Shown here one piece after another: positions 25,458 to 31,077 of a DNA stretch of 64,000 nucleotides (positions are counted from its first letter, which is position 1; each line of letters opens with the position of its first letter). Made by a program: the position numbers and the translations under genes. The notes under the pieces were generated by a model. That model did no database searches. It was not told the origin of the DNA and saw only the letters and a program-made list of their open reading frames with translations. Location of the stretch: assembly GCF_054482595.1 (NCBI RefSeq), contig NZ_CM137008.1; one strand, written 5' to 3'.

Positions 25458-26236
25458 TCACGACTGGAGCAACACTGGATACTGCTGATCCCATTTCGCT
25501 TCCAGTTCATCCAGCACCGTTTCTGCGGCTTCTTTCGACCCCGCGCGATATACCGGTTTCAGATCAGCCATAAAAGCTTTATGGTCATTTGAGGCCACGT
25601 ATTTAATCGAGTTACTGATTTGGTGAATGACGCACAACTGAACCTCTGTCTGCGGATAAATGCTGTTTATCGCCTCCGGGAAGCCGGTCAGCCCGCGCAC
25701 GCAGGCGATCAGGATGTCTTCAATGCCCCAGTTTTACAGGTCGCTTAATATAGACAGCCAGAAGTTAGCGCCTTTACTTTCTTATAGATACCGGCCCAGA
25801 GTTTCTTTCTTGCCTGCCAGATTCAGCGCCAGAACGGTATAAACCGTTTTGCTCTGATAACGGCCATTCTCACGGACTTTATAGTGAATACGTTCAGCCA
25901 GACGAAGGGGTAAACCTTTTCCAGCGGGTGCTGTTGCCACTGTTTTAGTTCAGGGGTAACTTTATCGTACTACACTGATGGTGGCGGTTGACATGCTGAA
26001 AGCATATAAATCTTCGAACTCTCGGCTAATGTCCTGGTAGCTAATCCCCTGCGCAAACAGCAGAATGATCTTGCGTTCAATAATAAATGCGATGATGCTC
26101 GCAAAATCCTTGCCGATCAACCCACCAGATGCGGCGGTTCTACGTGGATCGCGATTTAACTATCACTGCTAGTTATTTGTTCGAAAAGCCCATAGCTTTC
26201 TATTTATACTCAAGCTTCGCGCCATCAGATAGCTAT
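25458..26236 (-). pseudogene. IS256-family transposase remnant (fragmented)
   Basis: ORF fragment 25458..25700 (...EVQLCVIHQISNSIKYVASNDHKAFMADLKPVYRAGSKEAAETVLDELEAKWDQQYP) is typical of the IS256/mutator C-terminus; further pieces are broken by stops and frameshifts; right side truncated by IS5. Confidence 0.55.
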
Positions 26237-27431
26237 GGAAGGTGCGAACAAGTTCCTGATATGAGATCATCATATTCATCCGGAGCGCATCCCAGAGGGA
26301 CATCATGAGCCATCAACTCACCTTCGCCGATAGTGAATTCAGCACTAAGCGCCGTCAGACCCGAAAAGAGATTTTCCTCTCCCGCATGGAGCAGATTCTG
26401 CCATGGCAGAATATGACCGCTGTCATCGAGCCGTTTTATCCCAAGGCGGGCAATGGCCGACGGCCCTATCCGCTGGAGACCATGCTGCGTATTCACTGCA
26501 TGCAGCATTGGTACAACCTGAGCGACGGTGCCATGGAAGATGCCCTGTACGAAATCGCCTCCATGCGCCTGTTTGCCCGATTATCCCTGGATAGCGCCCT
26601 GCCGGATCGCACCACCATCATGAATTTCCGCCACCTGCTCGAGCAGCATCAACTGGCCCGTCAATTGTTCAAGACCATCAATCGCTGGCTGGCCGAAGCA
26701 GGCGTCATGATGACCCAAGGCACTTTGGTGGATGCCACCATCATTGAGGCACCCAGCTCTACCAAGAACAAAGAGCAGCAACGCGATCCGGAGATGCATC
26801 AGACCAAGAAAGGCAATCAGTGGCACTTTGGCATGAAGGCCCACATTGGTGTCGATGCCAAGAGTGGCCTGACCCACAGCCTAGTCACCACCGCGGCCAA
26901 CGAGCATGACCTCAATCAGCTGGGTAATCTGCTTCATGGTGAGGAGCAATTTGTCTCAGCCGATGCCGGCTACCAAGGAGCGCCACAGCGCGAGGAGCTG
27001 GCCGAGGTGGATGTGGACTGGCTGATCGCCGAGCGTCCCGGCAAGGTAAAAACCTTGAAGCAGCATCCGCGCAAGAACAAAACGGCCATCAACATCGAAT
27101 ACATGAAAGCCAGCATCCGTGCCAGGGTGGAGCACCCGTTTCGCATCATCAAGCGGCAGTTCGGCTTCGTGAAAGCCAGATACAAGGGGCTGCTGAAAAA
27201 CGATAACCAACTGGCGATGTTATTCACCCTGGCCAACCTGTTTCGGGTGGACCAAATGATACGTCAGGGGAGAGATCTCAGTAAAAACCGGAAATAACGC
27301 CAGAAATGGTGGAAAAAATAGCCTAAATAGGCTGATTCGATGTGTTTGCGGGAAAAAAATCGGCCCAGATCCGCGAAATTTTAATCAGCGAGTCTGCTTG
27401 GGAAGAAATGACCTGCTTATTCGCACCTTCC
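26237..27431 (+). mobile_element. IS5 (1195 bp)
   Basis: Termini ggaaggtgcgaacaag... and ...cttattcgcaccttcc; full InsH ORF; flanks (ctat / taag) are not a matching 4-bp duplication. Confidence 0.9.
26305..27297 (+). CDS. insH: IS5 transposase InsH (DDE)
   Basis: [37 protein letters not shown]...[17 protein letters not shown]... Confidence 0.92.
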
Positions 27432-27575: not shown

Positions 27576-30020
27576 TGATCCTACCCACGTAATATGGACA
27601 CAGGCCTAAGCGAGGTTCTGGTTTTCAAATTGTTCCGGACTGAGGCCGCCACACCAACTGTGCCGCCGCCACCGATTGTAATCACATTCGATATAATTAA
27701 ACTGAACCGCCCCGGGTTTCCTGGAGAGTGTTTTATCTGTGAACTCAGGCTGCCAGATCAGTATTTCCGATGGAAGCATAATAAGCTTTTTCTGCTTCTG
27801 CCGGAGGAATATGGCCCAGCCTTTCCAGCAATCGTCGATTGTTATACCAGTCCACCCACGTTAGTGTGGCCAGTTCCACTTCTGTCCGGTTTTTCCAACT
27901 CTTACGGTGTATTACCTCCGCTTTGTAAAGACCATTGATGCTCTCCGCCATCGCGTTGTCATACGAGTCACCAGTACTTCCTGTTGAGGCCAGTAAGCCG
28001 GCTTCCTTAAGCCGCTGCGTGTAGGCCAGCGATACATACTGAGAACCTTTATCACTGTGGTGGATTGTGCCGGACGGCCGGCGGGCCCACAACGCCTGCT
28101 CCAGTGCATCCAGCACGAATGTCGTTTCCATAGACGATGAGACTCGCCACCCCACGATGTATCCGGCAAATACATCAATGATGAACGCCACATAGACGAA
28201 GCCCTGCCATGTGCTGACGTAAGTAAAATCAGCTACCCACAGCTGGTCAGGACGTTCTGCCACGAACTGACGGTTTACGCGGTCGCCTGCGGCAACGGCT
28301 TTCCGGCTGATGGTCGTACGGACCTTTTTACCCCGGAGAACACCGGCAAGTCCCATAACCGCCATGAGACGTGCCACAGTGCATCTGGCCACCCTGATAC
28401 CTTCCCGTAACAACTGACGCCAGACTTTACGCACACCGTACACCTGATGATTTTCATCGTATACGCGCAGTATCTCTTTCTTCAGCCAGTCATCGCGCTG
28501 CGCACGGGCACTGCGTTTATCCGGATGATGTCGCTGTTGCTGACAGTGGTAATACGTTGACGGGGCAATATGCAGTTCGCTGCATACCGGTCCGACCCCG
28601 TACTGCTCACGCAGCTTATCCAGCAGTGGCATCATTTTTTCCAGAGGCGGTCGAACTCCACCTTCGCAAAATAAGCGGAAGCCTGGCGAAGGATATCGTT
28701 ACTGCGGCGCAGTTCACGATTTTCACGCTCCAGCTCTTTCAGACGCTGACGTTCAGCGGTGGTGAGCCCACCATCACCGCCCCCGGTATCCCGCTCATGC
28801 TGGCGAACCCAGACGCGCAGAGTCTCTGGCGTACAGCCAATCTTTGGAGCAATGGAACAAATTGCCGCCCATTGTGAGTCATATTCGCCCTGACTTTCCA
28901 GAACCATACGAACTGCCCGTTGACGGACTTCGGGGGAAAAACGAGTATTTTTAGTCATCCTGTTTACTCTTTCTCAGGAAGTTTAGTCTCCAGGATTCCC
29001 GGGGCGGTTCAAACACCGTTGCCCGCATTATTTCCCGGCTGATAAAGTGTTCTCCATGGATACATTCCACTTTCAGCGAATGAAAGAAGCTTTCCACGCA
29101 GGCATTATCGTAGCAGCAACCTTTTGCGCTCATACTTCCACGCAGATTATGCCGCTTCAGTTGCGCCTGATAATCTGCTGAACAGTACTGGCCTCCACGG
29201 TCCGTGTGAACGATAACGTTCCGGGGCCTCTTACGCCGCCATAGCGCCATCTGCAGGGCATCGCAGGCCAGTTGCGCCGTCATGCGTGGCGACATTGACC
29301 AGCCAATAACGGCACGTGACCACAGGTCAATGACCACTGCCAGATACAGCCAGCCTTCATCTGTACGTAAGTACGTGATGTCTCCTGCCCACTTCTGGTT
29401 CGGGCCACTGGCGTAAAAATCCTGCTCCAACAGATTTTCTGACACAGGCAGGCCGTGTGCGCGGTAGCTGACCGGGCTGAACTTCCGGGAGGCCTTTGCC
29501 CTCAGTCCCTGACGGCGCAGGCTTGCCGCCACGGTTTTTACGTTAAAGGGGTAACCCTGAGCACGCAGTTCATCCGTCAGGCGTGGGGCACCGTAACGCT
29601 GTTTTGACCGGGTAAAAGCCGCGAGGACAACGCTGTCGCAGTGTTGGCGGAACTGCTGACGCGTGCTTATCCTTGTCCGCCGCTGACACCACGTATACCA
29701 GCCGCTGCGGGCCACCCGGAGCACGCGGCACATTGCTTTGATGCTGAACTCAGCCTGATGTTTTTCAATAAAGACATACTTCATTTCAGGCGCTTCGCGA
29801 AGTATGTCGCGGCCTTTTGGAGGATAGCCAGCTCTTCATCCCGTTCTGCCAGCTGGCGTTTGAGACGTGCAATCTCGGTAGACATCTCCAGTTCACGTTC
29901 AGAAGACGTCTGCTGATTTTGCTGTTTACTGCGCCAGTTGTAGAGCTGTGATTCATACAGGCTGAGTTCACGGGCTGCGGCAGTAACACCGATGCGTTCA
30001 GCAAGCTTCAGGGCTTCACT
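27576..30020 (-). mobile_element. IS3, 5'-truncated and interrupted by IS629
   Basis: IS3 right terminus tgatcctacccacgtaatatggacacaggcc at 27576; IS3 sequence continues on both sides of IS629; orfB fragment 29012..29784 ([21 protein letters not shown]...); orfA lacks its first ~20 codons where IS903 abuts at 30021. Confidence 0.8.
27703..29011 (-). mobile_element. IS629 (IS3 family) inserted inside IS3 with 3-bp target duplication
   Basis: Termini tgaaccgccccggg at both ends (inverted); OrfA 28632..28958 ([31 protein letters not shown]...) and OrfB 27745..28635; flanking trinucleotide aac at 27700-27702 and 29012-29014. Confidence 0.88.
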
Positions 30021-31077
30021 GGCTTTGTTGAATAAATCAGATTTCGGGTAAGTCTCCCCCGTAGCGGGTTGTGTTTTCAGGCAATACGCACGCTTTCAGG
30101 CATACCTGCTTTCGTCATTTTGTTCAGCGCTCGTACCAGGGCCATAGCCTCCGCAACCTGACCATCGTAGTCACGCAGCGTCAGTGAACCCCCGAACAGC
30201 TGTTTTACCCGGTACATCGCCGTTTCCGCTATCGAGCGACGGTTGTAATCTGTTGTCCATTTCCACCGCGCATTACTCCCGGTCATTCGCTGATTAGCCA
30301 CTGCACGGTTACGGTCTGCATATTCACCGGGCCAGTAACCCGCACCTTTTCGGGGAGGGATAAGCGCGCTGATTTTCTTACGCCGCAGTTCATCGTGACA
30401 TAGCCGGGTATCGTAAGCGCCATCGGCGGCGGCTGACCTGATTTTCCGGTGGGTTTGCCGGATTAACCCGGGGAAGGCCTCTGAGTCCGTAACGTTGTTC
30501 AGCGACAGGTCAGCGCAGATGATTTCATGTGTTTTACTGTCAACGGCGAGATGCAGCTTACGCCAGATACGGCGGCGTTCCTGGCCATGCTTTTTGACTT
30601 TCCACTCGCCTTCACCGAAGACCTTCAGCCCGGTGGAATCAATTACCAGGTGTGCGATTTCACCCCGGGTGGGCGTTTTGAAACTGACATTAACCGACTT
30701 TGCCCGCCTGCTGACACAGCTGTAATCCGGGCAGCGTAGCGGAACGTTCATCAGAGAAAAAATGGAATCAATAAAGCCCTGCGCAGCCCGCAGGGTCAGC
30801 CTGAATACGCGTTTAATGACCAGCACAGTAGTGATGGCAAGGTCAGAATAGCGCTGAGGTCTGCCTCGTGAAGAAGGTGTTGCTGACTCATACCAGGCCT
30901 GAATAGCTTCATCATCCAGCCAGAAAGTTATGGAGCCACGGTTGATGAGGGCTTTATTGTAGGTGGGCCAGTTGGTGATTTTGAACTTTTGCTTTGCCAC
31001 GGAACGGTCTGCGTTGTCGGGAAGATACGTGATCTGATCCTTCAACTCAGCAAAAGTTCGATTTATTCAACAAAGCC
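30021..31077 (-). mobile_element. IS903 (IS5 family, 1057 bp)
   Basis: Inverted repeats ggctttgttgaataaatc at 30021 and its complement ending 31077; transposase ORF 30077..31045 (MKDQITYLPDNADRSVAKQKFKITNW...). Flanking 9-mers differ, so no target-site duplication. Confidence 0.88.

Follow-up and report, generated by a model that had tools for sequence, protein, structure and literature searches.

How does a pile of insertion sequences (ISs) come to stand between two blocks of polysaccharide genes, and does it turn those genes into a unit that moves? The question is raised by positions 25458-31077 of a 64,000-nucleotide stretch of Escherichia coli DNA (called the window here, in its full length), where an ISKpn26 isoform, an IS3 with an IS629-like element inside it, an IS903B and some smaller IS remnants separate the wbbYZ module, whose two genes account for D-galactan II and its pyruvylation, from the rfb2a-type wzm-wbbO cluster for D-galactan I. 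We conclude, with a probability that we put at about 0.85, that the pile is a zone of IS accretion at the seam of two horizontally acquired O-antigen modules in a tRNA-Ser (serW) island, and that it is a hotspot of rearrangement and not a composite transposon. What can be seen directly are the junction sequences, deletions in related genomes that end flush with an IS, a nested series of deletion endpoints running from two fixed anchors and the pattern of target sites in one genome, C21, in which the same IS has moved.

Occurrence and anatomy of the pile

Positions 25000-31500 of the window are a 100% match to the chromosome of E. coli SMS-3-5 (NC_010498.1; a window coordinate is the NC_010498.1 coordinate minus 2,252,001), and in the RefSeq annotation the region lies inside an island that extends from a tRNA-Ser gene (serW, downstream of infA) to an integrase gene adjoining clpA. 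Seventeen complete E. coli genomes (SMS-3-5 and 16 more) have this 6.5-kb interval at 100% coverage and at least 99.8% identity, and in 27 at least 80% of it is found in one place; the median number of places matching the pile is 9 per genome. Because 17 independent complete assemblies carry the interval with every one of its junctions, at 99.8-100% identity, the arrangement is real and the pile is no assembly artefact. Individual junctions are also held in common by an ordered set of derivative genomes. A collapse of scattered IS copies into a single region, which an earlier description made from the letters of the DNA without database searches (the sequence-only reading) had named as the finding that could undo it, is excluded by the 17 complete genomes and is left with a vanishingly small probability.

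Every element that the sequence-only reading had listed for 25458-31077 was found at its place and in the order given (Table 1). In the leftmost, a remnant of the IS256 family, stops run throughout all frames, and three open reading frame (ORF) fragments match Pfam Transposase_mut over profile positions 103-309 of 379. The IS that follows shares 99.4% identity with an annotated copy of ISKpn26 and about 92% with IS5, and its length of ∼1195 bp, its 16-bp terminal repeats (GGAAGGTGCGAAYAAG), with the ends GGAAGGTGCGAACAAG and CTTATTCGCACCTTCC, and its IS5-type DDE transposase (NCBIfam transpos_IS5_4, E = 6e-110) are those of the IS5 group. A 1-bp deletion at 27267/8 alters the last 5 codons of this transposase. 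The element is flanked by CTAT and TAAG, and so the 4-bp duplication (usual target YTAR) is absent, just as had been noticed from the letters. The scrap of an IS3-family orfA beyond it is cut on the left by the end of ISKpn26 and on the right by the right end of IS3, and its sequence is present in 1542 E. coli genomes, the parent IS being frequent in this species. Klebsiella-like chromosomes have an IS3-family element next to wbbY; we considered this element as the source of the scrap and rejected it, as the OrfA found there is IS407-like and unrelated.

The IS3 itself corresponds to positions 125-1258 of K-12 IS3A at 99.8% identity and is colinear across the IS629 insert, with InsE residues 21-99 and InsF residues 1-259 (at 99.6-100%) in the main body and InsF residues 255-288 (tblastn) in the right-end segment. 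Set against a full IS3 (1258 bp, both TG...CA ends, an orfA/orfB frameshift and a 3-bp duplication), it lacks the first 124 bp, that is, the left terminal repeat (IRL) and the start of orfA, and is a dead copy. The IS629-like element aligns from end to end with an annotated IS629 at 97% identity, and it has the expected size (∼1310 bp), terminal repeats that begin with TGAACCGCCCCGGG, intact orfA and orfB (ORFs of 108 and 296 amino acids) and the clean AAC duplication already recognized in the letters, here placed at 27700-27702 and 29012-29014. IS903B carries GGCTTTGTTGAATAAATC at both ends and belongs to the IS903 group of the IS5 family by its size, its repeats and its single DDE ORF (NCBIfam transpos_IS5_2, E = 6e-107). 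Its right terminal repeat (IRR, at 30021) abuts the truncated IS3 and its IRL (at 31077) abuts a truncated GT2 glycosyltransferase gene; the flanks GGCTTCACT and GTTACCCGC do not form a 9-bp duplication, again in agreement with what had been read from the letters. We regard the missing duplication as secondary, because new IS903B copies in genomes MMC-J-0020 and BY63 do have 9-bp duplications.

Table 1. Features of the window and deletions in sister genomes, in window coordinates
Feature	Position	Strand	Description
IS1	21191-21958	-	annotated IS1B, IS1B-like; 768 bp; left border of the wbbYZ module
wbbYZ module	21959-26236		wbbY, wbbZ and downstream sequence including the IS256 remnant
wbbY	22062-24284	-	740 amino acids
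wbbZ	24382-25191	+	269 amino acids
IS256-family remnant	about 25458-26120	-	decayed internal fragment of transposase gene
ISKpn26 isoform, IS5 group	26237-27431	+	1195 bp; 15/16 terminal inverted repeats
IS3-family orfA scrap	27432-27575	+	144 bp, 47 OrfA residues; HTH_Tnp_1, E = 9e-15
IS3 right-end segment	27576-27702	-	IS3 about 1132-1258, including IRR; 98.5% identity to K-12 IS3A
IS629-like element	27703-29011	-	1309 bp, inside IS3; 25-nt terminal repeats
IS3 main body	29012-30020	-	IS3 125 to about 1135; 99.8% identity to K-12 IS3A
IS903B	30021-31077	-	1057 bp; 18-bp perfect terminal repeats; intact transposase
GT2 glycosyltransferase gene	31047-32207	-	3' end truncated; last codons and stop from IS903B
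D-galactan I (rfb2a-type) cluster	32329-38961	-	wbbO, wbbN, glf, wbbM, wzt, wzm; Pfam architecture
IS3-family (IS911-like) remnant	39938-40323	-	C-terminal part of orfB; rve_3 domain
IS66-family remnant	40407-42924	+	orf1/tnpB; TnpB_IS66 domain; ISL3-family element nested in orf1
Deletion in EC21	29716-30020		from IS903B end at 30021
Deletion in 23CRST042	25219-30020		from IS903B end at 30021; IS903B alone between wbbZ and GT2
Deletion in BY63	junction 25236/30021		from IS903B end at 30021
Deletion in WCHEC050613	junction 20669/30021		from IS903B end at 30021; inside hsdM; wbbYZ absent
Deletion in TUM1881	about 22440		from IS903B end at 30021; coordinates only
Deletion in fS54a	to 31869		from ISKpn26 end at 27431; next to CTAG
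Deletion in B1W1	to 32104		from ISKpn26 end at 27431; next to TTAA
Deletion in WCHEC025985	to 33010		from ISKpn26 end at 27431; into wbbO
Deletion in XDL	to 44211		from ISKpn26 end at 27431; inside Gp2 gene; 16,780 bp, entire rfb2a gone

Rearrangements in sister genomes and the sequences that preceded the pile

Comparison with sister genomes, in which the sequence-only reading had proposed to look for alternative arrangements, shows that these IS copies have deleted, inverted and added DNA. At least nine deletions, ranging from 305 bp to 16.8 kb, lie flush with one end of ISKpn26 or of IS903B and between them remove either gene block, the number being a minimum obtained by counting distinct endpoints among the carrier genomes. 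TUM1881, I3, HZDC01, CM188745 and CM188749 were classed by match coordinates and annotation only and not by junction sequence. The suggestion that the ISs could delete their cargo is thereby strongly borne out, with the D-galactan I cluster lost in XDL and wbbYZ lost in WCHEC050613 by flush deletions. BY63 and 23CRST042 are derived forms, because SMS-3-5 keeps a Klebsiella-type sequence (25237-26236) that both lack.

Inversion is seen in C21, which has a second, inverted ISKpn26 in a CTAA target inside a terminal repeat of IS1; between this ISKpn26 and the original one, wbbYZ stands reversed. The flanks in C21 (CTAA/IS/ATAG and TTAG/IS/TAAG) are exactly those predicted with SMS-3-5 as parent, the daughter ISKpn26 has the same 1-bp deletion and the spacing and orientation found in C21 recur in three more genomes. 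Gains of IS903B were found in MMC-J-0020, where a second copy is flanked by a 9-bp duplication, TCGTCACGA, and in BY63, where the duplication at the new copy is AATAAAATG. In BY63 and TUM1881 the locus adjoins dsdC, and in BY63 an IS1 and an IS903B have been added upstream of wzm, each with its 9-bp duplication, giving an inverted IS903B pair around rfb2a. A larger gain is present in 30EVA2, in which a 7,274-bp segment (L013, 11995-19268) with genes for a P4-type integrase, a phosphoethanolamine transferase and an outer-membrane protein, and with an IS1, lies between two direct IS903 copies at the site of the single copy; the phosphoethanolamine transferase could affect lipid A modification. 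Taken across genomes, comparison shows the pile to be a live hotspot of rearrangement.

What stood at this site before the pile can be approached from both sides. The wbbYZ module is near-identical to its counterpart in a Klebsiella-like chromosome (L015) from 21959 to 26236. Klebsiella-like chromosomes (5.2-5.6 Mb) have the same 80-amino acid ORF of the IS256 remnant at the same offset from wbbZ; the remnant is contiguous with wbbZ there and was therefore imported together with wbbYZ, not acquired in a separate event in E. coli. Past the equivalent of 26236 these chromosomes continue into an HNH gene, at the start codon of which the left end of ISKpn26 interrupts the homology, and on the wbbY side homology starts at 21959, straight after IS1, at the point where the Klebsiella-like chromosomes have the end of an IS407-like element.

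For the galactan I side the reference is a plasmid, pF3_13_1_3-1, with the order IS5, wzm to wbbO, a full-length GT2 gene (413 amino acids), an acyltransferase gene, a 138-bp IS5-end remnant, wbbY, wbbZ and an IS903-like element. Plasmid and window are homologous up to exactly 31078, the IS903B end, where the plasmid continues with the 3' end of GT2 and the acyltransferase gene, both of which the pile appears to have replaced (for GT2, ∼37 codons). The full-length GT2 allele was found in 1573 blocks of the collection, almost all of them on plasmid-sized contigs, and it is often closely followed by IS1 or IS903. Two candidate links to plasmids were discarded as chance similarity, namely a 5-bp flank shared at the plasmid IS903-like element and flanks of ISKpn26 shared with the ET220 plasmid, which amount to GCTA and TAA only.

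Origin of the pile and competing explanations

The history that we propose would begin with the arrival of the wbbYZ module with the IS256 remnant already aboard. An IS3-family element would next have come to lie beside the module, IS3 would have inserted into or beside that element, and the IS629-like element would then have entered IS3 by ordinary transposition, leaving the AAC duplication. In a last step ISKpn26, IS903B and IS1 would each have lost their target duplications in rearrangements anchored at one end, either through adjacent deletion by intramolecular transposition or through insertion of a second copy followed by recombination between the two ISs. These rearrangements would have cost the orfA element its left part, IS3 its first 124 bp and GT2 its last ∼37 codons, and would have taken away the acyltransferase gene. 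The pile has no cellular function of its own, and it supplies no promoter, because both polysaccharide operons point into it.

For the flush deletions in sister genomes, and likewise for the earlier junctions without duplications in SMS-3-5, we infer an origin in intramolecular transposition. IS903 commonly makes adjacent deletions, and where duplications are missing such deletions are frequently the reason (PMC11708052). The competing explanation is that RecA-dependent recombination between dispersed IS copies, and not adjacent deletion catalysed by transposase, produced both the missing duplications and the deletions. In its favour, the genomes have many IS copies (the median of 9 places noted above) and new IS903 copies land nearby. 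In 30EVA2, moreover, 7.3 kb lie between direct IS903 copies and the IS903 transposase allele is unlike that of SMS-3-5, as would be expected had a circle bearing IS903 recombined with the locus. For this one insertion, gain of a second copy followed by IS-IS recombination is the better reading. When applied to the deletions, however, it needs a prior second copy in the same orientation at the exact site of each of at least nine endpoints; no such intermediate occurs among the genomes examined, and the locally hopped copies that are seen are inverted, giving inversions and not deletions. As an account of the whole series we therefore hold RecA-dependent recombination to be doubtful, if worth keeping in mind for each single event, and prefer transposase-catalysed adjacent deletion.

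Several points weigh against the history as we have told it. The end product alone fits adjacent deletion and second-copy insertion with homologous recombination equally well, and two of the four ISKpn26 deletion endpoints are off the usual YTAR target. The order and direction of the events are our reading of the junction sequences, and the rearrangement activity is that of sister genomes, none having been observed in SMS-3-5 itself. In WCHEC050613 the island backbone is 92-98% identical to that of SMS-3-5 whereas IS903B and the galactan block are 99.95% identical, and this genome is therefore not a simple descendant; the block has also moved laterally between related islands.

That both polysaccharide blocks are bordered by ISs holds, as the sequence-only reading had it, and on this ground it had called the architecture composite-transposon-like and able to mobilise the cargo. 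The first of these two statements does not survive: self-blastn of the 64-kb window gave no non-self match at E <= 1e-5 and so no second copy of any IS, the border elements are of different families, and there is no duplication around either of the gene blocks or around the region as a whole, IS1, ISKpn26 and IS903B having outer flanks that do not match one another. Because no IS is repeated in the window, the SMS-3-5 region is not a composite transposon. A broader form of the idea, in which the ISs at 21.2, 25.5-31.1 and 39.9-42.9 kb would make each or both of the blocks a composite transposon moving as a unit, draws on other genomes. The cargo occurs at several sites (the serW island, a serX island, next to dsdC and on plasmids), there are pairs of like ISs (inverted ISKpn26 in C21 and inverted IS903B around rfb2a in BY63 and TUM1881), IS5 plus ISKpn26 bracket the cargo in the ET220 plasmid, and the 138-bp IS5-end remnant beyond the acyltransferase gene on plasmids is inverted and lies opposite the full IS5 upstream of wzm. 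Yet most of the border elements in SMS-3-5 are truncated or have lost an end, the like pairs of other genomes are later simple insertions with duplications of their own, and where IS1 meets wbbY, SMS-3-5 and BY63 are not alike (the IS1 variants differ and the endpoints are 97 bp apart). A junction of IS1 and wbbY shared with BY63 and TUM1881 had been a candidate and was rejected, as BY63 retains about 97 bp of the IS407-like end next to a 93%-identical IS1 variant. Movement of either block as a composite unit seems to us very unlikely, and the claim of mobility is best divided: cargo on plasmids, next to dsdC and between pairs of like ISs elsewhere speaks for it indirectly, whereas transposition as a unit with a flanking duplication was not found.

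The accretion zone that we favour resembles systems already described. In IS-mediated adjacent deletion, as known for IS903, IS1 and the IS5 group, the deletion likewise starts at one IS end, has a variable reach, keeps the IS and loses the duplication, with nested series of endpoints from one anchor, as has been described for IS903 and in experimental evolution (PMC11708052); the series presented here differs in that it comes from natural isolates, not from laboratory selection. The likeness to a Tn903-type composite transposon consists in the inverted IS903B copies around the galactan-I cluster in BY63 and TUM1881 and around the rest of the pile in MMC-J-0020, but SMS-3-5 has a single IS903B, the second copy in BY63 was added later by simple insertion and has a 9-bp duplication of its own, and movement of the pair as a unit was not observed. 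The Klebsiella pneumoniae O1 loci, rfb2a and an unlinked wbbYZ, have the same genes, the same divergent wbbY and wbbZ and the same IS256 remnant beside wbbZ; SMS-3-5 differs in having both loci within 6 kb of each other in a tRNA-Ser island, with IS1 in place of the IS407-like element and ISKpn26 in place of the sequence past the IS256 remnant. From the nested IS clusters ("IS graveyards") of genomic islands and plasmids we see no difference of substance, and with ISs that sit in others and keep their duplication (IS629 in IS3 and an ISL3-family element in IS66 orf1) and truncated remnants that abut intact elements the region is a typical example.

Nesting of ISs with adjacent deletion at the seam of O-antigen modules is thus of a known kind, with a published cargo and with no new element or mechanism. 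The pile nevertheless explains which half of the Klebsiella O1-like locus different E. coli genomes keep, which is relevant when serotypes are predicted from sequence and when cross-reactivity with vaccines and antibodies against Klebsiella O1/O2 is considered, and provides a clean natural series of IS-anchored deletions that makes a tidy illustration. A bolder proposal, which we think improbable, is that the pile works as a recurrent, selected, one-way switch of an accessory O antigen, with hopping of IS903B making Tn903-like O-antigen transposons. Were this so, O1-like cells (galactan I plus II) would become O2a-like (galactan I only, as in WCHEC050613) or wbbYZ-only/null (as in XDL), escape from phage or antibody could follow, and Tn903-like O-antigen transposons would seed new loci and plasmids.

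Cargo, outer borders and neighbouring sequences

The cargo genes are readily identified. WbbZ is essentially identical to the protein of PDB entry 6X1L (612 bits over 269 amino acids) and WbbM matches 6U4B with 1082 bits; the gene order wzm-wzt-wbbM-glf-wbbN-wbbO, a WbbM with DUF4422 and GT8 domains, and the divergent wbbY (two glycosyltransferase modules) and wbbZ (a pyruvyltransferase) are all those of Klebsiella O1. The products of EcSMS35_2255/2256 share 99% amino acid identity with K. pneumoniae WbbY/WbbZ, and D-galactan II has been shown in the E. coli O19 reference strain F8188-41 (Hsieh 2014, PMC4237132). In K. pneumoniae wbbYZ lies between transposable elements, and in E. coli it is often near a complete rfb2a, in one case on a plasmid and otherwise at chromosomal sites that vary (Kelly 2023, PMC10629545). 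Because of this published work (PMC4237132, PMC10629545), the cargo and its general mobility were already known. Together the two modules are a Klebsiella O1-like (E. coli O19) antigen locus, and the intact state of the six rfb2a genes and of wbbYZ is consistent with production of an O19/O1-like antigen by SMS-3-5. The galactan block is carried by 54 of 5426 complete E. coli genomes (48 on the chromosome and 6 on a plasmid) and wbbYZ by 37 complete E. coli genomes. In YD786 (NZ_CP013112.1, 648492-653328), which is otherwise like SMS-3-5, wbbY is interrupted by the IS4-like ISVsa5, a further and independent IS hit on the cargo.

At the left border IS1 is flanked by CGAGGTGCA and CAAAAATAC, so that the 9-bp duplication is absent here as well, and the stop codon of hsdM lies inside the element. 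This gene (19641-21212), for a type I restriction-modification methylase of 523 amino acids, has its last codons and its stop supplied by IS1 and is followed by neither hsdS nor hsdR, an orphan methylase gene left by the IS1-associated truncation.

At the right border the remnant at 39938-40323 had been taken for IS2. Neither blastn nor tblastn against the IS2 of K-12 gave any similarity, and we replaced the IS2 label by that of the tail of an IS911-like orfB of the IS3 family, with 37-40% amino acid identity to InsF of IS3. At other loci, too, this remnant accompanies the galactan block, and BY63 shares it at the dsdC locus. Beyond it, the description of both IS66 and ISL3 sequences as remnants holds for the former and not for the latter: the ISL3-family element (40490-42252) looks complete, having 44-nt terminal inverted-repeat arms that are 84% complementary, and the orf1 reading frame of IS66 is restored once it is removed. 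A short CAAGA direct repeat accompanies the ISL3 element, and its transposase reads as two ORFs (323 and 216 amino acids) where RefSeq has a single coding sequence of 1620 nt.

Just past the IS66 remnant, at 42906-44511, RefSeq places a frameshifted "TOTE conflict system archaeo-eukaryotic primase" pseudogene and an inovirus-type Gp2 gene. The serW tRNA-Ser lies at ∼9373-9460 of the window and a tyrosine integrase gene at 49699-50907, which is at the opposite end of the island, away from the tRNA. Islands related to this one and bearing its cargo are found at another tRNA-Ser, adjoining ghrA (WCHEC050613), and near phoH (XDL).

The reference plasmids hold some further features. The wbbY of pF3_13_1_3-1 encodes 804 amino acids, versus 740 in the window, because 192 bp are tandemly duplicated close to the 3' end of the gene (16129-16453 of plasmid locus L006 versus 22001-22325 of the window). 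The 138-bp remnant between the acyltransferase gene and wbbY (15557-15694 in L006 and 16006-16143 in plasmid locus L008) derives from the right end of IS5, and its orientation is opposite to that of the complete IS5 found upstream of wzm. Just past the remnant comes sequence similar to the left flank of this complete IS5 in the same plasmid, and the remnant has the look of a second arm, now decayed, of a galactan-I unit bounded by IS5. Finally, positions 21135-24518 of L006, from pF3_13_1_3-1, encode a GtrA-family protein, a GT2 and a 674-amino acid protein between IS5-family elements, and these are probably the gml-type genes for side-chain modification that have been mentioned in earlier work (Kelly 2023).

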